Below are positions 45,202 to 64,000 of a stretch of DNA of 64,000 nucleotides, piece by piece. Source of the DNA: Candidatus Obscuribacteraceae bacterium (GTDB lineage Bacteria > Cyanobacteriota > Vampirovibrionia > Obscuribacterales > Obscuribacteraceae); assembly GCA_044226015.1 (NCBI GenBank), contig JBGAHS010000012.1, forward strand, positions 41,009 through 105,008. The letters are read 5' to 3'. How positions within the stretch are numbered: the stretch's first letter is position 1; each line of letters starts with the position of its first letter. Made by a program: the position numbers and the translations under genes. Below the pieces are notes generated by a model. It made no database searches. It had not been told where the DNA came from and saw only the letters and a program-made list of their open reading frames with translations.

Positions 45202-45262
45202 AAACGTGCTGCCAGATTCAAAGCGTGCTGCCAGATTCAAAACGTGTTGCCAGATTCAAAAC
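45202..45262. repeat. 19-bp tandem repeat x3 at the kynB stop
   Basis: aaacgtgctgccagattca / aagcgtgctgccagattca / aaacgtgttgccagattca. Confidence 0.9.
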
Positions 45263-45924: not shown

Positions 45925-45928
45925 ATGT

Positions 45929-46981: not shown

Positions 46982-46999
46982 GGTTACTCCGTTTGAGTG

Positions 47000-48433
47000 T
47001 TAATGGCTGCCAACTGTTTGCAATTGAGAAACGTATGGTGCAAGAAGTGGTTTGAGCTTCTCGTCTATCAGTTTCTCTGCTTTTTTCAAATCAACTTGTT
47101 CTGGGTCATGGAGGTCGTCACAAAGTTCGGAGAGAATCTCATCGTCTTTGCTGCCAACATCCATAGCCACTTTATATGGAATGTTGCTGAAGGTCACCAG
47201 CGAATATCGAGAAACATAGCGACCTGGGAATTCGCGCTGAAGAACTTTTTCCACAGCCTTCTGCATCAGGAAATTCTTATCGCTTACCTTGTCTCTCATT
47301 TCGACAAAGTTTTCGACAGCCATATCGGCAATAGCATCTGTGTTTTGCTTACGGGAAAGGAAGAAAGATTCAAATAGATTCTCCCAATCCATCTTGTCGC
47401 CATTTTTCTTTTGCTGCTCTTCCAGCATTTGATCGAACACTGTGCAATCTTCAAAACCGCAATTCATGCCCTGTCCGAAGAAGGGGACGATACCATGGGC
47501 GGCATCACCGACCAAGAGTGCTTTGCCGGTCGAGTTCCAGGGGTGAGCTTTTACTGTGACCATATGTCCGGTGGGGTTGCTCTTGAATGTTTCAACGAGA
47601 TTGTCTAAAAGCGGCACGGCATCTGGGAAAAACTTATTGAAGAAGTTTTCGATGCTCTTATCGTCATTCAAGTGCTCAAAGCTAATCAACCCCTGGAATG
47701 GCAAAAACAGCGTGACTGTATAACTTCCTTCGAAATTTGGCAAAGCGATCAGCATGAAGTTGCCGCGGGGCCAAATGTGGAGAGCATGCTTTTCCAATTT
47801 GAACGAGCCATCGGCGTTCGGTGTAATCAGAAGTTCCTTATATCCATATTCAAGCGCTTTCTCTTCACAGGCATATCCATTTCCCTGAAGCATCTCGTGC
47901 CTAATTGCTGAAGCAGAGCCGTCGGTTCCGATGACCCGGCTGTAAGTGTGAGTCTCTACGTCTCTACTCTGTTCATCGAGAATGCTTAGCTCTCCAGTTT
48001 TCAGGTTTAGTCCACATGCTTTCTTGTTGAAATAGATTTTTACGTCACCGGACTTCTCTGCGTGTGTCATCAGAGCTTTGTTAAGTGTTGCTCTCGAAAT
48101 ACTATTGATGCACTCCTGGTCGTTCATGCCGTAAGGCTGATATGTAAGCTCGCCATCCACTGCATGCATCATTCTTCCGCGCATCGGAACAGCCTGCGAG
48201 AGAATTTCGTCGGCCAGTCCCAGTCGGCGCAGCGCATTTATACCGCGTGTCGAAATCGCCAGGTTAATCGAACGCCCTGCGCTAATTTCCGCTACTCTCA
48301 TGTCTGGTCGACGCTCAAAAATATCAACTTTGAAATCGCGACGCGCCAGGTAAATTCCCAGGAGAGACCCTACCAGTCCTGCTCCAACCAGGGCGATTCT
48401 GTCCTTCGTATTTTCGGAAACGGTTTCGGTCAT
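47000..48433 (-). CDS. kmo: Kynurenine 3-monooxygenase
   Basis: GAGLVG, GRSINLAISTRG, GYKEL, LHIWPRG, MLIALPN and GDAAHGIVPFFGQGMNCGFED. Confidence 0.96.
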   Translation of the reverse strand: MTETVSENTKDRIALVGAGLVGSLLGIYLARRDFKVDIFERRPDMRVAEISAGRSINLAISTRGINALRRLGLADEILSQAVPMRGRMMHAVDGELTYQPYGMNDQECINSISRATLNKALMTHAEKSGDVKIYFNKKACGLNLKTGELSILDEQSRDVETHTYSRVIGTDGSASAIRHEMLQGNGYACEEKALEYGYKELLITPNADGSFKLEKHALHIWPRGNFMLIALPNFEGSYTVTLFLPFQGLISFEHLNDDKSIENFFNKFFPDAVPLLDNLVETFKSNPTGHMVTVKAHPWNSTGKALLVGDAAHGIVPFFGQGMNCGFEDCTVFDQMLEEQQKKNGDKMDWENLFESFFLSRKQNTDAIADMAVENFVEMRDKVSDKNFLMQKAVEKVLQREFPGRYVSRYSLVTFSNIPYKVAMDVGSKDDEILSELCDDLHDPEQVDLKKAEKLIDEKLKPLLAPYVSQLQTVGSH

Positions 48434-48448
48434 GGCTGCAACCTCTGT

Positions 48449-49750
48449 TTATTTGCAATTGTCGATAATTAAGTGAGCGAATTTATAGACATCCAGAAAG
48501 CTGTTGTACAGTGGTGCGGGGGCTGCCCTCACAATATCTGGTTCGCGGAAGTCGCAGATTGCTCCTGCTGTTTTGAGTTTCTTCAGCAGTTCTTTGGCTC
48601 TGCTGCCCAGCTTCAATGAAAGCTGGCTGCCGCGCTGTCTAATATCTTTCGGTGTGATGAGTTGGCACTCCTCTTCGCTGAGAGAAGTGGTCAAAAGAAA
48701 CTCGAGATAGCCTGTGAGCAAATCACCTTTTTTTCTTATGGCGGCCATGCCAGCTTTGTCAAATAGCTCCATCGATGCGCGCAGAGCTGCCAGTTGGAAA
48801 ATTGGAGGGTTGCTTAGTTGCCACCCTTCAGCACCTGTGATTGGTTGAAAGTGCGGACCCATCTTGAAGCGGGTTTCTTTGTCGTGCCCCCACCAACCGG
48901 CAAAGCGCGGCAGGTCAAATTCGGTGGCGTATCTTTCATGTACGAAACAACCAGCAATTCCGCCTGGTCCTGCGTTCAAATATTTGTAGCTGCACCAGAC
49001 GGCAAAGTCGACATCCCAATCATGCAGATGCAACTCAAGGTTGCCTGCACCGTGTGCGAGATTGAAACCAACCTTGCATCCTTTTGCCTGTGCTGCTTTA
49101 GTAATTTCTGGAATTTGGAAGGCTTGCCCAGTCAGATAATTGCATGTACCTAACATTACGAGGGCGATGCTATCACCTTCCTTCTCAATTAGGGAGAGAA
49201 TGTCTTCCGTGCGAATGGTGTATTCGCCTTTCCTTGGGAAGAGCTCAATTATGGCGTCTTCAGCCTTATATCCATGGAACTCAGCCTGCGATGCGACTGC
49301 GTACTGGTCAGATGGAAACGCTGAGCCTTCGACTAGAATTTTGAATCGTTTTTTCTCAGGACGGTAAAAGGTCACCATCATCAGATGCAGATTCACTGTC
49401 AGAGAGTTCATCACCACGACTTCGTGCGGTCTGGCACCAACAAGCCTGGCAGTACTTGCTGTCAAATTCTCATGATATGGCAACCAGGGATATTTCGCTT
49501 CGAAGTGTCCTTCGACACCAAGCTGCGACCAGTCAGTAAGTTCCTGCCCAATGAACTCACGCGTTTTAGCTGGCTGCAAGCCCAGAGAGTTGCCCGCCAT
49601 GTACAAAATCTTTTCGCCATTCTTATGATAAGGAAAATGGAATTGTTCTCGGAATGATGCCAGCGGGTCTCGTTTGTCCATCAACGATGCAAAACGTTCG
49701 CTGTTGTCGAAGCTAGCTAATGACTCATAACCGACAATCGTGCCCGGCAT
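48449..49750 (-). CDS. kynU: Kynureninase
   Basis: GNSLGLQP, MNSLTVNLHL, AFPSDQY, WCSYKYLNAGPG, GWWGH and RGSQLS. Start at ATG 49750 or 49780. Confidence 0.96.
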   Translation of the reverse strand: MPGTIVGYESLASFDNSERFASLMDKRDPLASFREQFHFPYHKNGEKILYMAGNSLGLQPAKTREFIGQELTDWSQLGVEGHFEAKYPWLPYHENLTASTARLVGARPHEVVVMNSLTVNLHLMMVTFYRPEKKRFKILVEGSAFPSDQYAVASQAEFHGYKAEDAIIELFPRKGEYTIRTEDILSLIEKEGDSIALVMLGTCNYLTGQAFQIPEITKAAQAKGCKVGFNLAHGAGNLELHLHDWDVDFAVWCSYKYLNAGPGGIAGCFVHERYATEFDLPRFAGWWGHDKETRFKMGPHFQPITGAEGWQLSNPPIFQLAALRASMELFDKAGMAAIRKKGDLLTGYLEFLLTTSLSEEECQLITPKDIRQRGSQLSLKLGSRAKELLKKLKTAGAICDFREPDIVRAAPAPLYNSFLDVYKFAHLIIDNCK

Positions 49751-49757
49751 TCTTTCC

Positions 49758-50807
49758 TCACCTTCCTGTTTCCACTTCACACAAAGAACAATGCGCAGTA
49801 GCCTGCGAACCTAGCCAACTAAGGGCATTTTTGTACAATAGCTTTTCTTTGCAGGCAGTGCTGATAATATCGCTGCTTTCAATTAGTTCGCCAGGTTGAT
49901 CTTCTCCAAGCGGAAACGGAAAGTCAGTGCCAAGTGCGATTTTGTCTTCACCGAAAAGTTTGATGATAAGCGAAAGCATATCGTGGTCATGCACCAGCGA
50001 ATCAACCCAGAATTTGCCCAAATATTCTCTTGGACTTTTCTTGTTGTCGACTGCTACCAGGTCTGGTCTAACGTTGTAACCGTGCTCGATGCGTGAAAAT
50101 GTGCCGGGGAAAGAACCGCCACCATGGGCGAAGGCAACGCGCAGTTTTGGAAGGCGTTCAAGTACGCCACCGAAAATCATGCTGCATATTGCTAGAGTTG
50201 TTTCAGCAGGCATGCCAACCAGCCAGGGCATCCAGTATTTTTCCATTCGTTCTTGTGCCATCATGTCCCACGGGTGCACAAACACGCATGCATCCAGTGC
50301 CTCTGCGGCCTCAAAAATAGGAAAGAGTTCTGCTTCGTTCAAGTTCTTCTGGTTCACATGAGTGCCTATTTGCACCCCTGCTAACCCGAGTTGCTTGACA
50401 CAGCGCTCAAGCTCTTTTACTGCCAGCTCTGTGTTCTGCATTGGTATGGTGCCTAGCCCGATCAATCGTTTCTCTTGAGAGCGCACCACTTCTGCAATGT
50501 GATCATTGAGAAACTGTGATATCTGAAGACCGTCTTCTGCTTTAGTCCAGTAGTTGAACATCACAGGCACAGTTGAAATTACCTGGACATCTACACCTTT
50601 TCTATCGAGGTCTGCGATGCGAGCGTCGGTGTCAAAACAATTAGGCTCAACTTCTCGAAAAAACTTTCCGTCATCGCGAAACATTTTGGCGTTGCCGCCG
50701 GGCTGATGTTCGAGTGTTATGAACCCGCCGTAGCCGAATTTTTCTTTGAAATTAGGAATCTGGCTCGGCAATATGTGGGCGTGAATATCAGCTTTTTTCA
50801 TCGTCAT
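49758..50807 (-). CDS. nbaD: 2-amino-3-carboxymuconate-6-semialdehyde decarboxylase (ACMSD, amidohydrolase family)
   Basis: DIHAH, STVPVMF, FVHPWDM, WLVGMPAET, FAHGGGSFP, DSLVHD and GTDFPFPLG. Confidence 0.93.
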   Translation of the reverse strand: MTMKKADIHAHILPSQIPNFKEKFGYGGFITLEHQPGGNAKMFRDDGKFFREVEPNCFDTDARIADLDRKGVDVQVISTVPVMFNYWTKAEDGLQISQFLNDHIAEVVRSQEKRLIGLGTIPMQNTELAVKELERCVKQLGLAGVQIGTHVNQKNLNEAELFPIFEAAEALDACVFVHPWDMMAQERMEKYWMPWLVGMPAETTLAICSMIFGGVLERLPKLRVAFAHGGGSFPGTFSRIEHGYNVRPDLVAVDNKKSPREYLGKFWVDSLVHDHDMLSLIIKLFGEDKIALGTDFPFPLGEDQPGELIESSDIISTACKEKLLYKNALSWLGSQATAHCSLCEVETGR

Positions 50808-51337
50808 TATTTTGCTGCTTCCAGTACAACTCTGCGTGCGCGTTCACCGCATGCCTTGCATGTACTCAGTTCGGCTGAGTCGTAAAACTTGTCGAAAATT
50901 GCATTGAACTGCGTCTCAATATTCGTCAACTTAAAGCGTTCTTCATAGAGCTTTGTGTCGCAACTTTCGCAGTACCAGCTGAGACCGTCGTTTTCATTCT
51001 CGCGGCGTTGACGCTCAACCACCAAGCCTATAGTGTTTGCGGGGCGGCGCGGTGAATGCGGCACTCCGCCCGGCAGCAAGAATATTTCGCCCTCTTTGAT
51101 TTGCATCGCAACTGGCTTGCCATCTTCGATTAGCTTCAGGGTCATATCGCCTTCCAGCTGATAGAAGAATTCTTCACCATCATTTATGTGGTAATCGGTG
51201 CGCGTATTTGGGCCGCCAATGATCATAATAATGAAGTCAGTGTCTTTGTAGACCAGCTTGTTGCCAACGGGCGGTTTTAAGAGATGGCGGTTTTCTTCAA
51301 TCCATTTCTTGAGGTTGATAGTGGCAAATTTACTCAT
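50807..51337 (-). CDS. nbaC: 3-hydroxyanthranilate 3,4-dioxygenase
   Basis: LLKPPVGNK, GGPNTRTDYH, EEFFYQ, VPHSPRR and two CxxC pairs. Confidence 0.96.
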   Translation of the reverse strand: MSKFATINLKKWIEENRHLLKPPVGNKLVYKDTDFIIMIIGGPNTRTDYHINDGEEFFYQLEGDMTLKLIEDGKPVAMQIKEGEIFLLPGGVPHSPRRPANTIGLVVERQRRENENDGLSWYCESCDTKLYEERFKLTNIETQFNAIFDKFYDSAELSTCKACGERARRVVLEAAK

Positions 51338-51500
51338 GGCAATGCCTCTGTGTCCTGAGCGACCTTTGATATGGGCATCAATTATCTCAGTTAGCCTTCA
51401 ATATTGTTTGAGTCTTTTTATAGTATTCATTTCTTTGAAGAAGCATTCTCTTGCGGGCTAGTCAAGTGCGTGCTTGCGCTAGGTTTCGCGCTATGTCCAG

Positions 51501-52733
51501 CTAGTTCTCAGGGCGCGGCAAATAATTGCATAGCTGTTGAAATGTTAAAGCCCGATCACCAACGAAGTCATCGTCGTCATACCAGGTGTTATTCAGTTCC
51601 ACCTTTGTGGTTTTGGGGTCATAACTCATGATTGTGACTAAGTGATTGCCTTCTTTGTTGTGAAGAACTGGCTTGCCTTGCGCCTGCAGCCGGTCTCCGT
51701 CAATTGAAATGAGCAGCGGAAAGTGTACATTTGGTAAGCGCCCATCTGCAACGAACTGCAGGAATTTTTGCAGCTGAGCATAATCGCTGTAGTTGAAGGT
51801 TCCGGGCTCTGGATGCCCAGCCCATTCTTCGTTGATTACTGTGATTGTCTCTTGCCCAGTGATAAGAGTGTTGATCAACTTCTCCTGCTTGCGATTTGTG
51901 TAGGGGCTGCGGACTTTTGCGCCATCGCGACTGAAAACTGCCAGTCCTTTGGTCTTGTCGAGCGAATAGTCTCTGAGTGATTCACTCTTGCCTACAAGCT
52001 CGAAGTGCAAGGTTCCCTTCTCTGCTGCCAGTTTGTCAGGGCGTTCGGTGCTTGATTGCCAGCCGATGTTCGCAGCTGTGACCTGGAAAATTCGACTTGC
52101 CCAATTAGCGTATTTTGCGGTTTCGGTGTTTGAGAGCGAATTCCGCGGATAAACAATTTCGCTGCCATCAGAGCATTTGTATTTGCCCAGAAGGACGATT
52201 TGCATAATCAGGCTTGCATAGAGTTCTGGTGTCAGGGTCGCTATTCTGACTTCGTAAGAAGCGAATTTGCATGTGTTGCCAACTTGTCCAATGTTTTGAA
52301 CTGGTGAAGCCAGATTGGCTAAAGTATCGATTGCAATGCTGGCTCTCTGAACTGAGCTCAGTCCAGTCTGAGCCTGTTCAGCGGCAACCATTTGCTGAAT
52401 GATTTGAAATGTCAACATTTTGTTCGGCTCTGGCGCTTGAGACTTTGTGCTGAATGCGTCTTCATAACTGTTGAGCTTCTTGAGTAGCGCAGAGTCCGCT
52501 GTGCCGATTGCTTTGAGAATCGCTGAATTTAGATTGTTCGCGGCTTTTCTGAGCTCATCAGGCATGGGGCTTGTTTGATTTTGCGTTGCTGTGGCAGCAG
52601 TTTTTCCTGGTGTTTGGCAACTTGCAATGTTCACTGTTGCCGACCATGTCAACGTTAGACTTAAAGGTATTGCAGCTGCGATCCTTTTGGTAATCGATAA
52701 TTTCAAGATCTGGGCTAGCTGAATTTTCGTCAT
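51501..52733 (-). CDS. Secreted hypothetical protein with a papain-like Cys-His-Asn arrangement
   Basis: Signal-like N-terminus; QVGNTCKFA, NHLVTIMSYD and VELNNTW occur in papain order. Confidence 0.55.
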   Translation of the reverse strand: MTKIQLAQILKLSITKRIAAAIPLSLTLTWSATVNIASCQTPGKTAATATQNQTSPMPDELRKAANNLNSAILKAIGTADSALLKKLNSYEDAFSTKSQAPEPNKMLTFQIIQQMVAAEQAQTGLSSVQRASIAIDTLANLASPVQNIGQVGNTCKFASYEVRIATLTPELYASLIMQIVLLGKYKCSDGSEIVYPRNSLSNTETAKYANWASRIFQVTAANIGWQSSTERPDKLAAEKGTLHFELVGKSESLRDYSLDKTKGLAVFSRDGAKVRSPYTNRKQEKLINTLITGQETITVINEEWAGHPEPGTFNYSDYAQLQKFLQFVADGRLPNVHFPLLISIDGDRLQAQGKPVLHNKEGNHLVTIMSYDPKTTKVELNNTWYDDDDFVGDRALTFQQLCNYLPRPEN

Positions 52734-52870
52734 TTGAACCAGGCTGATGCTTATGGTGAATTCTTGACCTCATCCATCTTCTACCCGCATTTGCGAAAAA
52801 TCATCAAAACGAAGAGCCGTCCAAACTGCTGCGGTGCTAGAATGGCGCGGGTTCAGCCAGGAGCGATATC

Positions 52871-53320
52871 GTGTCAAGCAATTCAAAATCTTCGTGCATT
52901 AGACAGGCTATTCATGTTGAGGAGCCGGCTCCAGCGCCTCTCGGTTCTTACTCGCATGCCATGCGCTCAGGTCATCTCTTGTTTGTTTCCGGGCAGGGCT
53001 GCCGTGATCCGCTGAGTGGTATTGAAGCTGGTATCACGATGGACGCTGAGGGAAAGGTGCTCAGCTATGATATTCAGGTTCAAACCAGGGGATGTATTGC
53101 TAATCTTGAGCGGGTGCTGAAAGCTGCGGGGCTGACTTTGCATGATGTGGTAGATGTCACGGTGTTCCTGGCTGATATGAAGGATTTCGCAGCATACAAC
53201 AAGGTTTACGCCGAGTATTTCACTTTCGAACAGCCGCCTGCGCGAACTACAATACAGGCCGCAGCGCTTCCAGGGCGCAATTTTATTGAAATTAAGGCGA
53301 TTGCGGCTTTTCGCGATTAG
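52871..53320 (+). CDS. RidA/YjgF family protein, probably 2-aminomuconate deaminase
   Basis: LGSYSHA, LFVSGQG, FLADMKDFAAYNKVY, PARTT and IEIKAIA. Context is the 3-hydroxyanthranilate pathway. Confidence 0.88.
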   Translation: MSSNSKSSCIRQAIHVEEPAPAPLGSYSHAMRSGHLLFVSGQGCRDPLSGIEAGITMDAEGKVLSYDIQVQTRGCIANLERVLKAAGLTLHDVVDVTVFLADMKDFAAYNKVYAEYFTFEQPPARTTIQAAALPGRNFIEIKAIAAFRD

Positions 53321-53335
53321 GCAATTGGTCTTGTT

Positions 53336-53556
53336 GGGAGCGCCGGACTCCTGCCTACTTCTGTGTTTGGGAGCGTAGGCATCCTGCCTGCTTCTGTGCC
53401 TGGGAGCTCCGGCATCCTGCCTACTTCTGTGTTTGGAAGCGTAGGCATCCTGCCTGCTTCTGTGCTTGGGAGTTTCGTCATCCTGTCTGCTTCTGTGCCT
53501 GGGAGCGTAGGCATCCTGCCTGCTTCTGTGTCTAGAAGCGCCGGCATCCTGCCAGC
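53336..53556. repeat. 33-bp tandem array (7 copies) of a REP-like short palindrome
   Basis: Units start at 53336, 53369, 53402, 53435, 53468, 53501 and 53534. Consensus GGGAGCGTAGGCATCCTGCCTGCTTCTGTGYYT with an AGGCA-TCC-TGCCT hairpin. Confidence 0.92.
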
Positions 53557-53693
53557 TTAGGCGTAACATGCGAACTTCTAAAAAAGAACTCATATAGTCA
53601 ATCGGCTTAAAGCACAATTACGGTTCTGCTGATCAGTCTCTAGAGCTGCTACAATCCGCGAGCAGGAAGGTTCGAAGCCAAAGAGGACGTCAA

Positions 53694-55163
53694 ATGAGCC
53701 CGGCTATTGCAGTAGACAAAAAGACGATCGACAACTTTATCAATGGAGAATTTGTTGCACCATCAAAAGGTGATTATTTTGAGGACATAAATCCTGCCAC
53801 TGCAGAGCCATTTGCAAAAGTTGCCAGCGGTGGAAAAGAAGATGTCGATGCCGCTGTAGCAGCCGCGAAGAATGCTTACTTGAATGGACCCTGGGCGCAC
53901 ATGTCACTGACCGAGCGCTGCCAGATTTTGCGTCGCATTGGTGATTTGATTCTAGAAAATAGAGATGCTCTTGCACTGGCAGAAACCACCGACACAGGCA
54001 AGCCCATAAGTGAAAGCCGTGAGGGCGACATTCCGCGTGCCGCGCAGAACTTTCATTTCTTCGCAGATTATGCTCAATCATTGAGTGAAGACTCATTCAA
54101 CGTCAATGAAAATGAACGCCACTTTGTTGTGCGTGAGCCACTCGGTGTGGCTGGCTTGATTACTCCGTGGAACCTTCCACTTTATTTGGCGACATGGAAA
54201 ATTGCACCATGTCTTGCAATGGGCAATAGTTGTGTATTGAAGCCAGCTGAGTGGACTCCTTACACTGCAAATTTGTTTGGACAAATTGTGCAGCAAGCGG
54301 GACTGCCAGCAGGTGTGTTCAATGTAGTAAACGGGTTTGGTGCTGGCTCTGCAGGTGAAGCACTTACCAGGCACCCGGACGTGCGCTGCATTTCATTCAC
54401 CGGCGAAACCGGCACAGGACGCGCAATTATGGCTGCGGCTTCTGAGTCGCTTAAGAAGCTCAGTTTTGAACTTGGTGGCAAAGGCGCAAACATTATTTTC
54501 GAAGATGCTGATCTTGATGAAGCTATTCCGACGGCGCTGCGTGCGGCTTATCGCAATCAAGGGCAGATTTGTTTGGCTGGTTCGCGTCTTTTTGTTCAAG
54601 AGTCTATCTACAAGAAAGTATGCGAAGAAGTCTTGAACAGAGTCAAAGAAATCAAAGTGGGCAACCCGCTTGATGCAAGTACGCAAATGGGCGCATTAAT
54701 CAGCCATGAACACCTCAGCAAGGTTCAATCTTATATAGAGATTGCCAGGAAAGATGGAAAGGTTGTCTATGGCGGTGAGCGCATCAAGGAATTGGGCGAT
54801 GGGAATTTCTTGCGTCCAACTCTTGTCACCGACATTGATAATTCGTCGAAAGTCTGCCAGGAAGAGATTTTTGGACCGGTACTACCTTTGATACCATTCA
54901 AAGACGAGGCTCATATTCTCGAAATGGTAAATTCGACTCCGTATGGACTCTCTTGCAGCGTCTGGAGCCAGAATGTTAACAGGCTGCACCGTATGTCTCG
55001 CGGCATTAAAACTGGCATAGTCTGGATTAACTGCTGGTTCGCTCGTGACCTCCGAACACCGTTTGGTGGTCAAAAAGCGAGCGGCATCGGACGAGAAGGT
55101 GGGCGTTATGCGCTTGAATTTTTCTCTGAACTCAAGACTGTTTGTTATAAGTACAAACCATAA
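53694..55163 (+). CDS. 2-aminomuconate / 2-hydroxymuconate semialdehyde dehydrogenase (ALDH8-like)
   Basis: DIPRAAQNF, ITPWNLPLYLATWKIAP, FTGETGTG, ELGGK, NQGQICLAGSR, EEIFGPV and RDLRTPFGG. Confidence 0.92.
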   Translation: MSPAIAVDKKTIDNFINGEFVAPSKGDYFEDINPATAEPFAKVASGGKEDVDAAVAAAKNAYLNGPWAHMSLTERCQILRRIGDLILENRDALALAETTDTGKPISESREGDIPRAAQNFHFFADYAQSLSEDSFNVNENERHFVVREPLGVAGLITPWNLPLYLATWKIAPCLAMGNSCVLKPAEWTPYTANLFGQIVQQAGLPAGVFNVVNGFGAGSAGEALTRHPDVRCISFTGETGTGRAIMAAASESLKKLSFELGGKGANIIFEDADLDEAIPTALRAAYRNQGQICLAGSRLFVQESIYKKVCEEVLNRVKEIKVGNPLDASTQMGALISHEHLSKVQSYIEIARKDGKVVYGGERIKELGDGNFLRPTLVTDIDNSSKVCQEEIFGPVLPLIPFKDEAHILEMVNSTPYGLSCSVWSQNVNRLHRMSRGIKTGIVWINCWFARDLRTPFGGQKASGIGREGGRYALEFFSELKTVCYKYKP

Positions 55164-55203
55164 AGTTTGGCATTAGAAATTGAATCCAAAGTAAGGAGAA
55201 ACC

Positions 55204-55995
55204 ATGGATTTAGGTATCAAAGGTAAACGCGCGCTTGTATGCGGTGCCTCTAAGGGGCTTGGTTATGCTTGTGCTGAGGCTTTGGCAGCTGAGGGAGCCG
55301 ATGTAATTCTTGTCGGGCGTGAAGAGAACACACTTAAAGACGCTGCCGAGAGAATCAAGAATCTTACCGGCACGCTGCCGAAATGGCAGGTTTGTGATCT
55401 TCTTTCGGCCGACTCACGAAAAACAATGATAGAGAAAGTTGGCACCGAATCAGGTGGCGTCGATATTATCGTTCATAATGTTGGCGGACCCAAAGCTAGT
55501 ACAGTGGAAGATACTTCAATCGACTCGTGGCAAGAAGGGTTTGACCGATTGTTCAAGCCTGTGGTCGAACTAAATCAGGCTTTTATTCCTGGAATGAAAG
55601 AGCGTAAATGGGGACGCATCGTAACCATAACATCTTTGAGTGTGATGGAGCCTATCGCGATGTTGTCTATTTCCAATGCGATGAGATCAGCATCAACTGC
55701 TTTAAGTAAAACTCTTTCAGATGAAGTCGCGAAACATGGCATTACAGTAAATTGCGTAGCACCGGGTTTGGTGCAAACCGATAGAACTGAAGAACTTATT
55801 AAAGCTCGCATCGAGAAGTCTGGTCAAACACGCGAACAGCATGAGGCAGAAATGCACAAGAACATTCCAGCTGCGCGCTTGGGTCAGCCAGCGGAGTTCG
55901 GCGCTGTTGTGTGTTTTCTCTGTTCGGAAAAGGCATCTTACGTTACAGGTTCTACCATCTGTGTAGATGGTGGCAAACGACGCTCTACCTACTAA
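55204..55995 (+). CDS. Short-chain dehydrogenase/reductase (atypical: SxxxR in place of YxxxK)
   Basis: GASKGLG, NVGGP, WGRIV, SISNAMRSA, VNCVAPG and VDGG. Confidence 0.92.
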   Translation: MDLGIKGKRALVCGASKGLGYACAEALAAEGADVILVGREENTLKDAAERIKNLTGTLPKWQVCDLLSADSRKTMIEKVGTESGGVDIIVHNVGGPKASTVEDTSIDSWQEGFDRLFKPVVELNQAFIPGMKERKWGRIVTITSLSVMEPIAMLSISNAMRSASTALSKTLSDEVAKHGITVNCVAPGLVQTDRTEELIKARIEKSGQTREQHEAEMHKNIPAARLGQPAEFGAVVCFLCSEKASYVTGSTICVDGGKRRSTY

Positions 55996-56010
55996 GATTG
56001 AGGGGTTGAA

Positions 56011-57171
56011 ATGCGATTTCTGGTTTTGGGTGCTGGGAAAATTGGAAGAGCAGTGGTTTACGACCTCTGCAAATATAGCCCTGAAGCTCAGCTTATCGTT
56101 GTAGACGCTAGTGAAGAGAAACTTGAGAAAATAACCAAGTCTTTTCAAAGTGAACGCATTTCAGTGATAAAGGCAAATGTCGGCGACATGATAGAGATGA
56201 ATTACATTCTCTCAAGCGCCGACATCGTAATAAGCTGTGTCAGTCATGCTCTAAACTACAATCTGGCTAAAGCCGCCATCGAAGCAGGTGCAAGCTTTTG
56301 TGACCTTGGTGGCAATGAAGATGTCGTTCGCAAGCAATTTTTGTTGCATGACATGGCTGTGGACAGCAATGTTTCAATAATTCCTGATTGCGGTCTAGCG
56401 CCGGGAATGGTGTCAATTCTGGTCGCGTCTGCTTGTGCAGATCTCGATCTTGTGCACGATATCACCTTGCGAGTGGGTGGCTTACCGGTCGAGCCAACGC
56501 CCCCTTTAAACTACGCGAATCTTTTCCCTGTGGAAGGGTTGATTGACGAGTACTACGAAGATTGCACCGTAATTCGTGGCGGTAAATTATTGCGGGTACC
56601 TTCTCTGACAGATCTTGAGGAAATAGAGTTCCCTGCTCCGTTTGGAAAGATGGAAGCTTTTTTGACTTCGGGTGCGATTTCGACTTTGCCAACGACCTTC
56701 AGTGGACAGGTTAAAAACCTTGATTTCAAAACGATTCGCTACCCTGGTCATTGTGAGAAGGTGCGAGTTTTGAAAGAGCTTGGATTTATGGATTCTACGC
56801 CACTTTCTATTTCAAACCCGGCGGTGTCAGCCAGAACGGTTTTGGCGCATGTGCTGGAGCAGAAACTTCCAAATGATGAACCAGATGTGGTGCTTCTCCG
56901 TGTGGAGGCTGCGGGCGAAAAAGATGGACTCGCTAAGATATCGAAATGGGAATGTATCGATTACATGGATGACGACGGTCTTTCAGCTGTGGTGCGATGT
57001 TCAGCATTCCCAATCGCCATCATCGCTCAGATGCTTGGCTCTGGCGTCATCAAAGATAAAGGCACTCTGCGACAGGAAAAGCAAATTCCGATTGATGCCT
57101 TCCTTGCCGAAATGAACAAACGAGGCATTCAACTGAAGCGTTCCGAGCGCTCGGTTCAGCCAGCTTCCTAG
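56011..57171 (+). CDS. Saccharopine dehydrogenase / lysine 6-dehydrogenase family oxidoreductase
   Basis: GAGKIG, DLGGN, DCGLAPG, VGGLP, EGLIDEY and KTIRYPGH. Confidence 0.9.
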   Translation: MRFLVLGAGKIGRAVVYDLCKYSPEAQLIVVDASEEKLEKITKSFQSERISVIKANVGDMIEMNYILSSADIVISCVSHALNYNLAKAAIEAGASFCDLGGNEDVVRKQFLLHDMAVDSNVSIIPDCGLAPGMVSILVASACADLDLVHDITLRVGGLPVEPTPPLNYANLFPVEGLIDEYYEDCTVIRGGKLLRVPSLTDLEEIEFPAPFGKMEAFLTSGAISTLPTTFSGQVKNLDFKTIRYPGHCEKVRVLKELGFMDSTPLSISNPAVSARTVLAHVLEQKLPNDEPDVVLLRVEAAGEKDGLAKISKWECIDYMDDDGLSAVVRCSAFPIAIIAQMLGSGVIKDKGTLRQEKQIPIDAFLAEMNKRGIQLKRSERSVQPAS

Positions 57172-57387: not shown

Positions 57388-58239
57388 TCATTTTACTGGC
57401 TGCTGAGCTAGTAAGTTTAGTAACCAGTTGAAATCACTGGAATCTTCCACCGTCGTCCATCCCCTCTTTTTTCTAACTAAACCGACAATATGGAAGCTGC
57501 CATCACAGTAGTGTTGAGATTTGCACGAGAACTGAAGGTCCGTCAAATCTTTAGAAATCGTTTTTGCAATCCCACAAGTTACCGGTGTGCAATTCCCCTT
57601 TGAATTCATTTTGAATTTTCCAAAAATTATTATTTCGGACTTTGCCCAAAAAGGTGTGTCGCTTTTCGCAATCAGTTCTCCAGTTTCGACATTAAAACTA
57701 TACTGGCGAAAGCTGGTAGTAGTTAGAGTTAAGCGGTTTCCGGATAGAACTGGGTTCTTAATTCGCCTCTTGTTTTTCCAAATGTCAGCAATCCATGTTG
57801 TGTGAGACGTAGATTGTTGAACCAAGGACTCTCTGACGAGCAGTTCTTGCAGAGAGTATGATTTCGAAAGTCTTCCCTTTCTAAAAAATGCCAACGCTGG
57901 AGTCGACAAACTAGCGACATCGTTTGACGATAGCGTGCCATAGAAGTTGTTAGCGAGTAGCCAGATTATGCTTTGACCTGAATCATACTGAAACAAGTCT
58001 CCACGATTCAACTGAAAATTCACAGGTTGAGTGGTGTAAGATTCTTTGCCCTCTAAGTTTACAGAAAGAGTGTTGTTGGAGTTAAGCATCACACTCACTT
58101 CATCACCAAGATTGAATCTATGTCCGACCGGCTTCAGATTTGGTACCGAATCTCCGAAACAAGGTGCACACGAATGGATCATCAGCAGATTGGCGAGCAC
58201 CATTATTATTTGGGAGGGGAAAATCTGCTTAATAATCAT
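57388..58239 (-). CDS. Hypothetical exported protein, putative immunity partner of Rhs cassette 1
   Basis: Start overlaps the end of the Rhs-CT ORF by 11 nt; signal-like N-terminus; AT-rich. Immunity role inferred from position only. Confidence 0.55.
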   Translation of the reverse strand: MIIKQIFPSQIIMVLANLLMIHSCAPCFGDSVPNLKPVGHRFNLGDEVSVMLNSNNTLSVNLEGKESYTTQPVNFQLNRGDLFQYDSGQSIIWLLANNFYGTLSSNDVASLSTPALAFFRKGRLSKSYSLQELLVRESLVQQSTSHTTWIADIWKNKRRIKNPVLSGNRLTLTTTSFRQYSFNVETGELIAKSDTPFWAKSEIIIFGKFKMNSKGNCTPVTCGIAKTISKDLTDLQFSCKSQHYCDGSFHIVGLVRKKRGWTTVEDSSDFNWLLNLLAQQPVK

Positions 58240-59266
58240 GGGTGCTTAGCGAAAATGAATTAGCCGAAAACGGCGATGAGAGGTTTAGTCTTGGTATCGG
58301 CTGCATTTGTGCGTATCCATAATCTACGCGTGGTTGTAACCCCATTATGCCACGAACTTCGTTTCCGGCTCGCATTGCCGGAGAAGATAAATCATGGCTG
58401 TGAGCAACCGCTTGCTTTCGTTCTAACGAATGACCCAGTTCATGCGCCAGTAAGTCCGAAGGGGACAGGGGCTCCTTCCCGTAGTCGGGAGAATCGCAGC
58501 TGAAGTGCCCTTCGAGATTTGGATTGAAATCTATGACAGAATTTTTTGTTCCCTTAATTCCATACATCTGAGCTGCTCCGTTTCCATTATTAACCCGAAT
58601 TTCGACATCAACATCAGGAGCATCCAGCTCACGAAGAATTGTATTTAGTGTTGAAGTGCTTTTGGGATCAAGTGATGCCATTGTTCGTAGGTTCACGAGT
58701 CGCTGTTGTGCTAACTGAATGGAGCCGGCATCTGCGCCCGGTCCACCTGTAACTCGTATGATGAGTCCTAAAGGATCAGTATTCGAAATAGGACTATTCC
58801 CGGTGTAGCCATACAAGTTCAGACCTGCATTCTCGCCCAGTGGATCTCGGCTCAGCCAACTGCCTAGCGCTGGGTTGTATTGGCGGAACCAGGTCAGAGC
58901 GAGGTTCGTACGTGAGTGTTGATAGATGCCGGTGAAGCCGAAGTCAGGCTTGAAGCTGCCGGACAAAACCGTCATGTTGCCGTAGGGATCAAATCCGAAC
59001 GCGCCTTGAACTGTGCCACCGTCATTGGTGACTTCGCGCACTGAACCGAGATGATCGAATGCATAGAAGTAATTCGTCGTCGAGTTCCGCTGACCAAGTC
59101 CGCTGTACTGACTGACTACTGCATTGCTGTTGTCGCGTTGTTCGCAGCGCTCTGCACCGCACCAGATAAAGTTCTTTATTGCGTTGCCGCTATAGCCTGG
59201 CGTGCTGCCGTTTTCTGCAATCTGAACGCAGCGCCCCGCAGCATCATGCACAAATTGGGTGTTATT
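58229..59266 (-). CDS. Orphan Rhs C-terminal cassette 1 (core fragment + HExxH metallopeptidase-like tip)
   Basis: DHLGSVR, FGFTG, RQYNPALGSWLSRDPLG and PISNTDPLG; the tip contains LLAHELGHSLE. The 5' end is truncated at NNTQFVHD. Confidence 0.88.
   Translation of the reverse strand, partial: NNTQFVHDAAGRCVQIAENGSTPGYSGNAIKNFIWCGAERCEQRDNSNAVVSQYSGLGQRNSTTNYFYAFDHLGSVREVTNDGGTVQGAFGFDPYGNMTVLSGSFKPDFGFTGIYQHSRTNLALTWFRQYNPALGSWLSRDPLGENAGLNLYGYTGNSPISNTDPLGLIIRVTGGPGADAGSIQLAQQRLVNLRTMASLDPKSTSTLNTILRELDAPDVDVEIRVNNGNGAAQMYGIKGTKNSVIDFNPNLEGHFSCDSPDYGKEPLSPSDLLAHELGHSLERKQAVAHSHDLSSPAMRAGNEVRGIMGLQPRVDYGYAQMQPIPRLNLSSPFSANSFSLSTHDY
58805..59266 (-). repeat. ~460-bp conserved Rhs core repeat, copy 1 (others at ~60457-60919, ~62097-62558 and ~63695 to the window end)
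   Basis: Near-identical DNA in four direct copies. In the three complete copies identity stops at ...cacaaattgggtgttatt. Confidence 0.95.
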
Positions 59267-59409
59267 GCGCTAATTACCTTAAAGGGAGTTCGAGTCTAAG
59301 CCTTTTCCACATCAAAGTTATCGCAGAATTTCATCGCTTAATAATGAAGGTATTCCACTCGCATACAACAGATCTGTTGCTGCTCCGTTTCGACACTTCT
59401 ACATGGTGG

Positions 59410-59799
59410 CTACGGGCTGCATCGATTATTCAAGATATTGAAGAATACAAATAAACAAAGCCAGTGACCAATTAGCGGTGCTGCCAATATTAATGGCTCT
59501 TTTCTGCCCCTCATAAAATACAGAAGGATGGAAGCCGCCAGCGCAACGAGAGTAACAATACTCGTCCAGCCGATAGCAGAGTCTGCCCCATAATCCCCAT
59601 TCACCATTGTCCCCAATCTCGTCACCGAAGTCGATGGAAAAAGTTCCCTGTGAAGAAGAAAATTGATAGCCCCAAAGCAAAGAACTGGATGCCTTGAATC
59701 TGCGGTGTGTCTAAGCGAACACCAACTAGCATCTAGTGGACAGAGAAACAGATAGCCTGCACACAACAATATTAGCGTAAGAAGTGCTGATGGCTTCAT
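59410..59799 (-). CDS. Small membrane protein, putative partner/immunity of Rhs cassette 2
   Basis: AGGAG RBS, three hydrophobic segments, directly downstream of the cassette 2 tip. Confidence 0.55.
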   Translation of the reverse strand: MKPSALLTLILLCAGYLFLCPLDASWCSLRHTADSRHPVLCFGAINFLLHRELFPSTSVTRLGTMVNGDYGADSAIGWTSIVTLVALAASILLYFMRGRKEPLILAAPLIGHWLCLFVFFNILNNRCSP

Positions 59800-59872
59800 G
59801 GATATTAGATCTCCTAATCACAATCTTTGCATAATAGTCCAAATGCGAACAGAGTCTGAACAAAATGCAGTG

Positions 59873-60919
59873 TCAGTGCTTGTACTTGTCTGGAAGACTC
59901 TGAATGAGTGCATTAGCATCAGGACTGGCCGTACCGATTTCATTTCCCTGATTATCAAAAGCTCTCCAAACACCACCTGGACCCAACCCGACATCTGGAC
60001 TGTAGGCGCCGTCCGGAGCCATGAAAAAGCGATTGTCGTTTAAGCCAAGCAGAGGAGCAATATATTGAGCCATTGATTTGCCTCCCAACGATGAGCGGGG
60101 TGTCGCCAAATAGCAAGCTTCTCCTGAGACAGACTTATCTGGACTGAAATGCGAAGATGACTTGATTCCTTCTGCCCATTGCTTAAAGCCATAGCCGCGG
60201 AATGAAAAGCTGGTAAAAGCCGCCCAAGGTTGTACGCCGGAAGTTAGCACTCCGCGTACTGTATGGCCACGTGCAACAAAGATGTCTGTACTAAATCTAG
60301 TCTGTCCGTACCTTATGGCATCAAGTCCTTGCAATGAATTGAAATCGACATCTCTAGAAGATGGTCTCGGATTGCCGAGGGTTTTATACAGTTGGTATCC
60401 AGCTTCACCTCCTACCAAACCAAACGGATCGACATTGCTAATCGGATTATTACTGGTGTAGCCATACAAGTTCAAGCCTGCATCTTCCCCCAACGGATCT
60501 CTGCTCAGCCACTTGCCTAACGCGGGGTTGTATTGGCGGAACCAGGTCAGAGCGAGGTTCGTACGTGAGTGTTGATAGATGCCGGTGAAGCCGAAGTCAG
60601 GTTTGAAGCTTCCGGACAAAACCGTCATGTTGCCGTAGGGATCAAATCCAAACGCGCTCTCAACTGTGCCACCGTCATTGGTGACTTCGCGGACAGAGCC
60701 TAGATGATCGAATGCATAGAAGTAATTCGTCGACGAGTTGCGCTGACCTAGTCCGCTGTACTGACTGACCAGAGCATTGCTGTTGTCGCGTTGTTCGCAG
60801 CGCTCTGAACCGCACCAGATAAAATTCTTTATCGCGCTCCCGCTATAGCTTGGTGTGCTGCCGTTTTCAGCAATCTGGACGCAGCGCCCAGCAGCATCAT
60901 GCACAAATTGGGTGTTATT
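59873..60919 (-). CDS. Orphan Rhs C-terminal cassette 2 (core fragment + possible caspase-like His/Cys tip)
   Basis: Same core fragment, PISNVDPFG; tip contains VARGHT...GEACYLA...SMAQYIAPLLG. Confidence 0.85.
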   Translation of the reverse strand, partial: NNTQFVHDAAGRCVQIAENGSTPSYSGSAIKNFIWCGSERCEQRDNSNALVSQYSGLGQRNSSTNYFYAFDHLGSVREVTNDGGTVESAFGFDPYGNMTVLSGSFKPDFGFTGIYQHSRTNLALTWFRQYNPALGKWLSRDPLGEDAGLNLYGYTSNNPISNVDPFGLVGGEAGYQLYKTLGNPRPSSRDVDFNSLQGLDAIRYGQTRFSTDIFVARGHTVRGVLTSGVQPWAAFTSFSFRGYGFKQWAEGIKSSSHFSPDKSVSGEACYLATPRSSLGGKSMAQYIAPLLGLNDNRFFMAPDGAYSPDVGLGPGGVWRAFDNQGNEIGTASPDANALIQSLPDKYKH

Positions 60920-61217
60920 TCCCAGAACAAATTAGGCTAAGTTCTTTTGCAAAAGCGAAGAGTCAAAATACCTGAACAGCCATTTGAATTCATAGTCGAC
61001 ATACTGGTCAGCTCTGCGAATATTCAAAAGCTACAATCAAGCTTCCGTTCTAAATCTCTTTCACTTCTTTGACAGTTTCCGAAGTGTGGCAGCCGGAAAA
61101 GTGATGTCTTAGTTGTGTAGGAGCGACTGCCGTAACTCGAGAATGACTAATTCAAATGTAGAATCACTCCTCCGCAAGATTCCACTACCTGCTAGAATGC
61201 GAATAGGCATGTGGTAA

Positions 61218-61547
61218 GTGACAATGATTCCTACAGCACAACCCCCATTGGATGGCATAGTTGGACTTGCGATCTTAGCATTGATTTTCGTAGCATGTTG
61301 GTGCGTGAAGCGTTCTCTCCAAAAGAACAATCCCGCCAGTGGAAGATTCTACTGGTGGGGCAATTTCATAGGTGCTGGTGCAGGAGTGATGTTCTTGATT
61401 GGTTGGGCTATTCTAAGCCATTCGCTGACATCATGGAGCTATTTGCCTCTCTTGTTTGTCCCGGGGGTGATTCTCGGCGCGGTTCCCGGCGGAGTTATTG
61501 GGCTCATAGTCGGGTGGATCTTGATAAAAACAACTCAAAAAGCATAA
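61218..61547 (+). CDS. Small Gly-rich membrane protein, convergent with Rhs cassette 3
   Basis: 109-aa ORF with three or four hydrophobic GxxxG-rich helices, ending 6 nt from the cassette 3 stop. Confidence 0.5.
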   Translation: MTMIPTAQPPLDGIVGLAILALIFVACWCVKRSLQKNNPASGRFYWWGNFIGAGAGVMFLIGWAILSHSLTSWSYLPLLFVPGVILGAVPGGVIGLIVGWILIKTTQKA

Positions 61548-61553
61548 GCAGAA

Positions 61554-62558
61554 TCATTTCCATGGTGGGGTGAAACCAAACACGCCTCTTTGGTTATTGA
61601 TGAAGTATCCGTAATTTAGGAAGCCATTTGGCCGTTGCCACTGAAATGTATCGTTAGGAGTGAGCATTGTTTTAGCGTATATCCCACCAGCTCTCATAAC
61701 ACTAGCTGCAAAATCATCAGAGTTGTGCCATGGGGTTATGTAAGTTGGAAACCCATTGAACCAGTTGTCTGCTTCATTCAGGGCCCTTTGGTCATCGGCA
61801 TCGCAGGTTTCGTATTTTATGTATCGGTAATACTTGGCGTGGTTAGCTGCTTTTAAGGCCTCGTCAAGTGTGTTGAAATGAACTTTATCGACGGACCCTT
61901 TGCCCACAAGTCCATACTCTGGGATATACACACCAAAGGCTTCATTCTCCGGACGAAAAGAGCGAAACTCGTAACCGGCACGGTCATTGCCGACTAACAC
62001 TGCATTGTGACCAGCTCCGAGCACATCGGATTTACGGTTTAGGAAGTAGATGTCCAAGCCCAAGGGATCAACGAGTGAGATCGGATTGTTCCCTGCGTAG
62101 CCGTACATGTTCAAGCCTGCATCTTCCCCCAACGGATCGCGGCTCAGCCACCTACCTAGAGATGGGTTGTATTGGCGGAACCAGGTCAATGCTAGGTTCG
62201 TGCGAGAGTGTTGATAGATGCCAGTGAAGCCGAAGTCTGGCTTGAAGCTGCCGGACAAAACCGTCATGTTTCCGTAGGGGGCGAATCCAAAGGCGCCTTG
62301 AACTGTGCCACCATTATTGGTGACTTCGCGCACAGAACCGAGATGGTCGAATACATAGAAATAATTCGTCGACGAATTCCGTTGACCAAGCCCGCTGTAC
62401 TGACTGACTACTGCATTGCTGTTGTCGCGTTGTTCGCAGCGCTCTGCACCGCACCAGATAAAGTTCTTTATTGGGTTCCCGCTATAGCTTGGTGTGCTGC
62501 CGTTTTCAGCAATCTGGACGCAGCGCCCAGCAGCATCATGCACAAATTGGGTGTTATT
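61554..62558 (-). CDS. Orphan Rhs C-terminal cassette 3
   Basis: Same core fragment, PISLVDPLG; tip GAGHNAVLVG...YEFRSFRP...HNSDDFAASVMRAGG. Confidence 0.85.
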   Translation of the reverse strand, partial: NNTQFVHDAAGRCVQIAENGSTPSYSGNPIKNFIWCGAERCEQRDNSNAVVSQYSGLGQRNSSTNYFYVFDHLGSVREVTNNGGTVQGAFGFAPYGNMTVLSGSFKPDFGFTGIYQHSRTNLALTWFRQYNPSLGRWLSRDPLGEDAGLNMYGYAGNNPISLVDPLGLDIYFLNRKSDVLGAGHNAVLVGNDRAGYEFRSFRPENEAFGVYIPEYGLVGKGSVDKVHFNTLDEALKAANHAKYYRYIKYETCDADDQRALNEADNWFNGFPTYITPWHNSDDFAASVMRAGGIYAKTMLTPNDTFQWQRPNGFLNYGYFINNQRGVFGFTPPWK

Positions 62559-62636
62559 TCATTCTTCCAAGCAAACAAACTTAGAATAACTCTATCGATG
62601 CTTGCGGCGTGTCTGTTGGCTGAGCACACTGAATTA

Positions 62637-63095
62637 CTATTCTTGTTTGTTCCGCTCGTTAAGTGGGTCCACTTCTACTGCGTGTACAGAACTGATGTCC
62701 AAGTTTTCGACACTATCTTCGTTTAACAGATGAGGGGGTGACTTCTGGTCATGCTGCTCATTCGTAGGCGGCAATGATGCTCGGAATTCATTTCTCCCTC
62801 TGCGAAAAAATAGCACAACTGGTCCAAGACAGCTACATACAAGAAGAATTGGCCAGCAGTCAATTTCCTGTTGAGCAACAGCAAGCCAAAACATTTGACT
62901 TCGAAGCTTAATCGTGTTGTCCCAAGTCAGCCCATTTCGGCACTCCATTAGATCGGCTTCAAGTTGGGCGGATAGCTTTATTTTATGTCGGGGGTTTATA
63001 TACCAATAACCAGGAAACATTACAATCCAAGCAGAAATTAACAATCCGCAGAATGCAGAGAGAATCAACTTCAAAATAAAGGATTTGTTTTGCAT
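62637..63095 (-). CDS. Two-TM membrane protein downstream of Rhs cassette 4
   Basis: 152-aa ORF with two hydrophobic helices flanking a short loop. Confidence 0.55.
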   Translation of the reverse strand: MQNKSFILKLILSAFCGLLISAWIVMFPGYWYINPRHKIKLSAQLEADLMECRNGLTWDNTIKLRSQMFWLAVAQQEIDCWPILLVCSCLGPVVLFFRRGRNEFRASLPPTNEQHDQKSPPHLLNEDSVENLDISSVHAVEVDPLNERNKQE

Positions 63096-63171
63096 ATTTC
63101 TATTGTCTTACAAGAACCTGTCAATTCATTTAACCTAGCTTTGATCGCAAATTAACTTTTCTACGATTCAA

Positions 63172-64000
63172 TTACTTTGGCGATTGTGTGAAGCCAAATT
63201 GTCCACCGTAACCAAAATTCAGCCATCCGCCATTCGTGCGCAGAAATTGAAAAGTAAAATTAGGCGTGTTTAGAGGAACCATGTTTATACCTCCAGCATT
63301 CAAGACAGTGGTCGCGAAATTATCGGATTGATGACCAAACAGGTAATAGTATTGTTGCCAGTTATCAGCGGCAGCTAGTGCCTTCTTGTCACTTCCTTCG
63401 CAGGTTGTATATCTAATGTAACGTTTATATCCTTGGCTGTTTGCGTAGGTCAGAGCTTCTTGAAGCGTATCGAAGCGACGATTATCTGTAGCTGAAGACC
63501 CTATTACCCCATATTCTGGTACATAGTAACCGCCAACAACATTGCTAGGTCGGAAGGAACGAAACTCGTAACCCGTTGAGTCATTGCCTATCAAGACTCC
63601 ATTATGACCAGCACCCAGCACATCCGATTTTTTTGTTCAGAAAATATATGTCCAATCCCAAGGGATCAATAAAACTAATCGGATCTCCCACAGTGTAGCC
63701 ATACAAGTTCAAGCCTGCATCTTCCCCCAACGGATCGCGGCTCAGCCACCTCCCTAGCGCTGGGTTGTATTGGCGGAACCAGGTCAAAGCAAGGTTCGTG
63801 CGTGAGTGTTGGTAGATGCCGGTAAAGCCGAAGTCAGGCTTGAAGCTGCCGGACAAAACGGTCATGTTGCCGTAGGGATCAAATCCAAACGCGCTCTCAA
63901 CTGTGCCACCGTCATTGGTGACTTCGCGGACAGAGCCTAGATGATCGAATGCATAGAAGTAATTCGTCGACGAGTTGCGCTGACCTAGTCCGCTGTACTG
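63172..64000 (-). pseudogene. Rhs cassette 4 (or 3' end of a full-length rhs gene), frameshifted in an A7 run; 5' end is outside the window
   Basis: Core to PISFIDPLGLDIYFLNKK, one extra A at 63628-63634, then SDVLGAGHNGVLIG... continues in ORF 63172-63621, homologous to the cassette 3 tip. Confidence 0.85.

Follow-up and report, generated by a model that had tools for sequence, protein, structure and literature searches.

The Silent Rhs Array at the Contig End

The window, as the whole 64,000-nucleotide stretch analyzed here is called, is the end of contig C13 in the 8.19-Mb, 13-contig assembly of a Candidatus Obscuribacteraceae bacterium (genome G000), and it carries, up to position 64000 where the contig stops, four Rhs core-plus-tip fragments on the minus strand, arranged as direct repeats spaced 1653, 1639, and 1598 bp. 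In three of these units the shared sequence ends at 59266, 60919, and 62558, an identical 5′ boundary whose 24-nt motif occurs three times in the window and in none of 100 shuffles; both the boundary and the spacing, described in an earlier sequence-only reading, are confirmed. The boundary is probably a site of site-specific exchange within rhs. The features of the array and its edge are the following.

57388..58239, minus strand: unit 1 partner gene, an open reading frame (ORF) of 283 aa overlapping the tip stop; putative immunity protein, a role suggested by its position
58229..59266, minus strand: unit 1 silent Rhs fragment with core, DPLG, and HExxH-bearing tip (TIGR03696, 69 bits)
59252..59266, minus strand: site 1, 15-nt shared core, proposed 7-bp overlap 59255-59261
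59410..59799, minus strand: unit 2 partner gene, hydrophobic, ORF of 129 aa, no family
59873..60919, minus strand: unit 2 silent Rhs fragment with core, DPFG, and tip without known family (TIGR03696, 72 bits)
60905..60919, minus strand: site 2, proposed overlap 60908-60914
61218..61547, plus strand: unit 3 candidate partner, hydrophobic ORF of 109 aa, convergent with the tip
61554..62558, minus strand: unit 3 silent Rhs fragment with core, DPLG, and tip (TIGR03696, 75 bits)
62544..62558, minus strand: site 3, proposed overlap 62547-62553
62637..63095, minus strand: unit 4 partner gene, ORF of 152 aa, no family
63172..64000, minus strand: Rhs fragment of unit 4, truncated where the contig stops, with a tip frameshift near the T run 63628-63634
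56011..57171, plus strand: host flanking gene at the left edge of the insertion, presumably dehydrogenase-like, next to the gene that flanks the C3 bank in the related genome G006 and 13.7 kb away from it in the related genome G005

Three complete frames match the Rhs_assc_core family TIGR03696 at 69–75 bits (cut-off 32.5), each followed by a distinct tip of its own, and the DPxG motif is present in all four units. The GTG codon lies within a YD repeat, with no Shine-Dalgarno-like motif at a usable distance 5′ of it, and the frame runs on upstream in full-length rhs genes, where it reads RLIQITYPGxGNNTQF, in agreement with the earlier description. With a core fragment, DPxG, a variable tip, and no translation start, the units have the makeup of Rhs orphan modules. 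The small partner gene also assigned to each of them is not uniform, however: that of unit 1 encodes 283 aa, and the sole ORF found for unit 3 lies on the opposite strand, no same-strand partner ORF of at least 70 aa being found there. The sequence beyond the boundary, claimed to be unrelated, is so among the three window left flanks (p 0.07–0.59), but the flank of unit 2 has 74 bp at 82% in common with one unit on contig C3.

Profile searches place the partner genes of units 1, 2, and 4 in no family above cut-off, and the window tips provide weak leads only: a Peptidase_M91 match below cut-off for unit 1 (19.5 bits against 25) and, for unit 3, a TseH-like or IcsB-like feature match (atlas score 0.94–0.95) that serves as a lead. 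Among 25 other tips tested, one passes a Pfam cut-off (Ntox37). The tip of unit 4, 53% identical to that of unit 3, is frameshifted, and has the same letters in contigs of the sequencing runs X1 and X2. These runs, from two studies, one of them possibly the source sample, match the unique stretches of the window with 0–1 differences, frameshift included, so that an assembly artefact is dismissed for those stretches; the order of cassettes across the cores is not bridged.

The Boundary Site across the Genome

A pattern based on the sequence CACCCAATTT, the core of the site, matches the genome at 30 places, all at a single YD-repeat position: six sites belong to the core family of the window (three in the window, three at the start of C3), and 24 lie on contig C11 in two loci. 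The exact pattern is absent from 103 relatives, and the reversed control has no match in G000. An earlier protein-level search had listed the same copies plus one degenerate copy, which indicates that the pattern hid no staggered C11 copies; a metagenome scan for the site gave one match, a chance match in an unrelated gene.

Two of the C11 sites lie in frame within full-length rhs genes (2322 and 2069 codons open), referred to here as parents. In 21 C11 cassettes, the identity to the parent ends after exactly 10 nt (19/21) or 12 nt (2/21) upstream of the reference point, and in the six window-family sites after 12–19 nt, site 2 having 19 nt of identity to the C11 parent. One further C11 site carries 173 bp more parent sequence. 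The expectation that every unit would start at the boundary therefore holds for 27 of the 28 non-parent sites, all within 10–19 nt of one point, instead of the variable core lengths of the Jackson model (PMC2935791). The near-uniform unit size that had been taken as further evidence is of no use in this respect, since C11 units range from 1527 to 2632 bp and are longer where mobile elements sit.

Conservation peaks at the boundary. The five codons of the site show no variation among 22 C11 copies, whereas conserved residues past column 30 keep their codon in 57% of cases, and the median DNA identity of C11 copies downstream of the site is 81% in the first 100 nt and 53–60% thereafter. The C11 cassettes have a common noncoding left flank (68/210 pairs significant), and the six window-family sites are joined at the same place to five unrelated left flanks. 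The window cores are about 77% DNA-identical to a further family, B, found at the ends of C3 and C5, and their protein identity to the C11 cores is about 40%; nevertheless, at the site the window family carries the letters of C11 and not those of family B.

In a chimeric unit on C3 (L007:3074-3645), a window-type site and 58 bp of core are followed by an upstream stretch of the family B type, after which the core starts a second time. On C2 (L010, 19672-30149) a 2886-codon rhs has a different sequence at the site position and is followed by a 200-aa tyrosine recombinase catalytic domain.

Cassette Banks around Full-Length rhs Genes

At both C11 loci, which are assembled contiguously, most cassettes lie upstream of the full rhs and point away from it, and one to three lie downstream in the same direction, so that opposed sites flank the constant N-terminal part of the gene; this differs from the same-orientation downstream position of orphan modules. 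One tip is found on both sides of a C11 parent (92–96% identity over 715 nt), and both loci have in common a tail of 926 bp whose end is at the site (97%). These repeated tips and tails show that units have been moved or copied, whichever enzyme was responsible. Several units are decayed, namely window unit 4 and those at C11 1266366 and 1270138.

The parent of the window bank is unassembled, and its layout is approached through synteny. The host genes flanking the window bank and the C3 bank are convergent neighbors in G006, lie 13.7 kb apart in G005 and on separate contigs in G003, and one or both are absent from the other seven genomes searched. Given this adjacency, the end of C13 most likely joins the start of C3, with the two banks head to head and opposed sites on either side of an unassembled middle piece, where the parent is probably to be expected. 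All four contig ends of family A, that of the window, and family B are tip-ward ends, and no contig end supplies an N-terminal part for either family.

Rearrangement was looked for in the assembled contigs of four runs compared with the window. These contigs break in the cores and contain no parent junction; their five joints fit other same-family units on C3 or are not assignable, and the rearrangements that the sequence-only reading had suggested looking for are not seen. A loose end near site 3 in run X3, from a single low-depth contig, is neither in the assembly nor parent-like, and may be the flank of a missing unit.

Additional observations were made around these banks. A 433-bp perfect inverted repeat on C11 (1271665-1272098 and 1279446-1279879; L004, L005) flanks a full rhs together with the partner gene, and both copies of the repeat end at a site. 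Three tandem tyrosine recombinases, a trio that we take to be RIT-like, are inserted in a C11 cassette bank (1255222-1257643; L003, L004), and identical 3-kb IS66-like copies occur at C11:1281788 and C3:412843. A full rhs on C11 (L137:6934-16070), with an N-terminal Peptidase_C39-like domain, lies downstream of a Laminin_G/Fn3 protein gene. Family B, whose parent is also unassembled, comprises at least 10 tips in mixed orientations, with a core about 150 bp longer (L008, C3:409000-421271; L009, C5:263000-274600). The partner of window unit 4 (62637-63095) resembles, by eye, the partners behind unrelated family B tips (C3:409367-409843 and 416866-417498), and some partners may accordingly not be specific to one tip. 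Further to the left, the window carries six to eight copies of a 33-bp tandem repeat between two genes (53301-53564) and what is presumably a kynurenine-pathway-like cluster (45256-57171).

The Recombinase and Its Relatives

Among the 19 tyrosine recombinase matches of the genome, one (C11:89522-90643, 373 aa) is divergent from the rhs operon and stops 46 bp short of the core of the first inverted site at C11 locus 1. It matches PF00589 with 76 bits and has the catalytic R/K/H/R/H/Y residues intact, but, unlike its relatives, it lacks an arm-binding domain. No member of its family lies at C11 locus 2, and the 17 sites of that locus would therefore be served in trans or by a copy since lost.

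Homologues of this enzyme are present in 73 of 104 genomes of the family. Of the best 30 outside its own genome, 24, from 14 genomes and 8 genera, have an Rhs core no more than 6 kb away, two lack one, and four are on contigs too short to tell; for 20 lower-ranked homologues these numbers are 3, 13, and 4. The quick tree built for this family comprises 74 copies, of which 39 are linked, 25 are unlinked, and 10 lie on short contigs; 10 of its rows came from loci chosen for Rhs. It contains four well-supported clades with 31 of 32 rows linked and one clade of 23 without a linked row; the linkage label requires 7 changes on this tree against 24.8 for shuffles, close relatives not being independent. 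No member of the family was found in 400 further genomes from the phylum at E 1e-40, or, at 1e-15, in three sister-family genomes, G022, and G030, the last two of which have Rhs cores. A search for related loci with the recombinase returned, over 58 loci, only very short matches or matches of 21–36%. Arm-bearing integrases of a sister clade, which often face Rhs genes of another family head to head (L138, G000:C4:25020-28094; L127 and L128, G101:C1), are possibly a second rhs-linked system.

The usual order in the relatives is full rhs, tip, partner, integrase, short spacer, and truncated tip (G019, G097, G104, G110, G114), and their arrays mostly run in the same direction. When 28 truncated copies from 14 genomes are compared with 37 full copies, the likeness begins 8 nt before the YPG codon, the match rising from 0.21–0.25 at positions −10 and −9 to 0.89–1.0 at −8 to −5. 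The exact run to the full copy of the same genome is 8–10 nt in 13 of 14 truncated copies, the other 14 giving no run, and four further copies lacking YPG, two of which start nearer the G000 site, were set aside. This breakpoint lies 28 nt upstream of that in G000, and the sites fit a 7-bp spacer. The core in the target gene is repeated at the far end, just past the integrase, in the relatives and at C11 locus 1, and not at the window.

Arm-like signals are also found. The arm-binding domain is present in both of the two G097 integrase copies scanned, and, of 29 truncated copies, 16 have a TACA-N7-TACA doublet about 100, 120, or 142 nt upstream, against 2 of 37 full copies (shuffles, mean 2.4, maximum 8); across the 30 G000 sites there are four scattered matches. 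Repeat searches on three elements of relatives gave no clear arm repeats by themselves. G097 elements also code for a protein with an HTH_17 fold, which is typical of excisionases; near Rhs, HTH_17 occurs only in G097 and G105.

Interpretation and Alternatives

The boundary is likely to be the crossover site of a phage-type tyrosine recombinase, a short sequence in the last YD repeats of rhs. What is observed is the site, its in-frame presence in full rhs genes, a recombinase beside it, and a recurrent gene order in relatives; all the catalytic steps that follow are deduced from sequence. In the relatives, an element made of site, tip, partner, and integrase would circularize and integrate at the site within rhs, which would gain a new tip while the old one is displaced downstream behind the integrase. 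Such an integration would produce the gene order of the relatives and, old tips being displaced at one site, would make every displaced tip start at the same base.

In G000, the cassettes would be integrase-free, and the single arm-less recombinase, with its site shifted by 28 nt, would act in trans on all CACCCAA sites, those of the window included. Recombination between opposed sites would invert the middle segment, fusing the N-terminal part to another tip without loss of any toxin or immunity gene; since the silent tips on either side of the full gene face away from it, such an inversion would change the tip, and the window would be the left bank of a head-to-head locus. This inversion switch is plausible, if still tentative. 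With its arm-less enzyme, absence of arm doublets, integrase-free cassettes, and opposed banks, G000 looks like a derived state, and the window cassettes are probably integrative elements reduced to integrase-free units. The broader view, in which an integrase family specialized on a site in rhs and small elements re-arm the host toxin, the G000 copy having lost its arm to become the resident switch of about 30 sites at three loci that flips the full gene between two banks, a Rhs shufflon, is equally provisional.

Several observations weigh against this interpretation. Neither a full-length rhs nor a recombinase is assembled at the window locus, and the X1 and X2 contigs, compared with the window only, agree in the unique stretches and contain no joint for which a rearrangement is the necessary explanation. 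The window-family left flanks have no shared motif (1/15 pairs significant), the 460-bp window cores are 86–95% identical, more than homologous recombination requires, and the matches to the site were picked out by the pattern itself. In family B, too, 6 of 8 aligned copies start at one point (TCGACAA), with two types of flank, and its contigs carry no integrase; longer-core orphans exist in some relatives (G013). In the quick tree the recombinase is a long branch and the rhs-linked rows, with their 7 changes, do not form one clade; the TACA-N7-TACA doublet, in turn, was chosen by eye. The dedicated recombinase of the sequence-only reading gains strong comparative support from the in-frame site, the abutting enzyme, and homologues that track Rhs tips in 8 genera, but the full rhs and recombinase it called for are both on C11, and its activity is a prediction.

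The closest alternative, possible but rather doubtful, is that the sites are fossils left by a site-specific integrase, with no present switching by inversion and with opposed banks as rare accidents. It has the integration step in common with the interpretation above, and is consistent with the same-direction arrays of most relatives, the contiguous C11 assembly, the several decayed units, and the lack of an arm domain in the local recombinase. Opposed banks, however, recur at both C11 loci and at the window, families A and B have tip-ward sequence at all four of their contig ends, and the recombinase keeps all its catalytic residues.

In an ordinary orphan array, the boundary would go back to a single truncated ancestor, later copied, with exchange of tips, by RecA-type recombination through circles or duplications, and the integrase would be a hitch-hiker; this is unlikely. 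Such an array would agree with the published rhs model (PMC2935791, PMC3967940), the high identity of the window cores, the fixed start of family B with only two flank types and no nearby integrase, and the lack of rearrangement in the run contigs over the window. A single founder, nevertheless, predicts one inherited left flank, where six sites have five unrelated ones, and does not predict a conservation peak at the boundary, the same site letters in two distant core families, a breakpoint fixed in 14 genomes, or intact integrases just upstream of tips.

The consensus of dif is 11-6-11, with an inner ATAA-N6-TTAT symmetry. Movement of cassettes by the host XerC/XerD at dif-like sites is highly improbable: the 6-bp spacer of the earlier proposal does begin exactly at the C11 identity boundary, TTATT stands beside it in 4 of 6 window-family sites, and one C11 array has a Xer-like gene about 8.5 kb away, but ATGTT takes that place in 19 of 21 C11 cassettes, which lack TTAT and with it the dif symmetry (the host's own dif was not located), the sites of relatives fit a 7-bp spacer, and the enzyme that tracks the site scores 31.6 bits against a XerC cut-off of 335 and also falls below that of XerD. 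The integron analogy fails likewise (20.5 bits against an IntI cut-off of 265), no attC-like hairpin being found in five site regions (z-scores −0.58 to 0.80, one strand folded), and a CRISPR-style archive is dismissed, as nothing indicates polarized acquisition or an RNA stage, neither of which was searched for.

Relation to Known Systems and Significance

P4-like integrative elements restore the 3′ end of their target gene. The elements of the relatives resemble them in Arm-DNA-bind_3 plus Phage_integrase domains, a core at both ends, candidate arm-like repeats, a candidate excisionase-like HTH protein, and tandem accretion; they differ in that a toxin gene harbors the target and receives, as its new 3′ end, another toxin domain, so that the host protein changes, and the window cassettes, moreover, have no integrase. 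Joining of a constant N-terminal part to silent C-terminal alternatives is reportedly the work of Rci in the pilV shufflon of R64. Inversion switches are also described for Mycoplasma agalactiae vpma (PMC2268961) and pneumococcal hsdS/PsrA (PMC7096588, PMC4948785). A tyrosine recombinase and opposed short sites are common to them and the present loci, where the cargo is toxin-partner pairs of about 1.6–2.6 kb, the enzyme comes from an arm-type integrase family, a member of which adjoins C11 locus 1, and the inversion is a proposal. Recombinase-linked polyimmunity is also known from rAID clusters. The polyimmunity loci with Xer-like genes (Zhang 2012, PMC3482391) likewise have a tyrosine recombinase beside arrays of competition genes, but collect immunity genes near XerC/D-like enzymes, while here the site is in the toxin frame and each unit has a tip.

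Orphan rhs-CT/rhsI modules and C-terminal displacement have been described by Jackson 2009 (PMC2935791), Poole 2011 (PMC3150448), and Koskiniemi 2014 (PMC3967940). The likeness lies in silent core-plus-tip fragments with partners near a full rhs, and in old tips displaced through a proposed circle; here, by contrast, the breakpoint is fixed, an integrase abuts, and banks are also upstream and inverted. Homologous exchange of tips involves variable cores (PMC2935791, PMC3967940) and requires a duplication beforehand if the old immunity gene is not to be deleted (PMC3150448, PMC3967940). Integrase-like genes recur near the rhs arrays of Snodgrassella and Gilliamella, with toxin capture suggested (Steele 2017, PMC5727410), but the description available there defines no attachment site, fixed breakpoint, or element, which sets them apart. 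Two preprints (bioRxiv 10.1101/2025.05.08.652813, 10.64898/2026.07.13.738213) are also among the sources on homologous exchange, rhs-near integrases, and polyimmunity, and no paper describing an attachment site inside rhs was found in a search that left most subscription journals and supplements outside.

How the C-terminal domains of polymorphic toxins are acquired and exchanged is an open question, with homologous recombination as the standard answer. If the present interpretation is true, a site-specific route would account for the circular intermediates proposed in 2009 and for loss-free switching, and it lends itself to direct study with a single enzyme of 373 aa and a site of about 30 bp. 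Further gains would be an integrase family whose target has shifted naturally, with two sites in one gene separated by 28 nt, and many uncharacterized toxin domains from a little-studied bacterial group.

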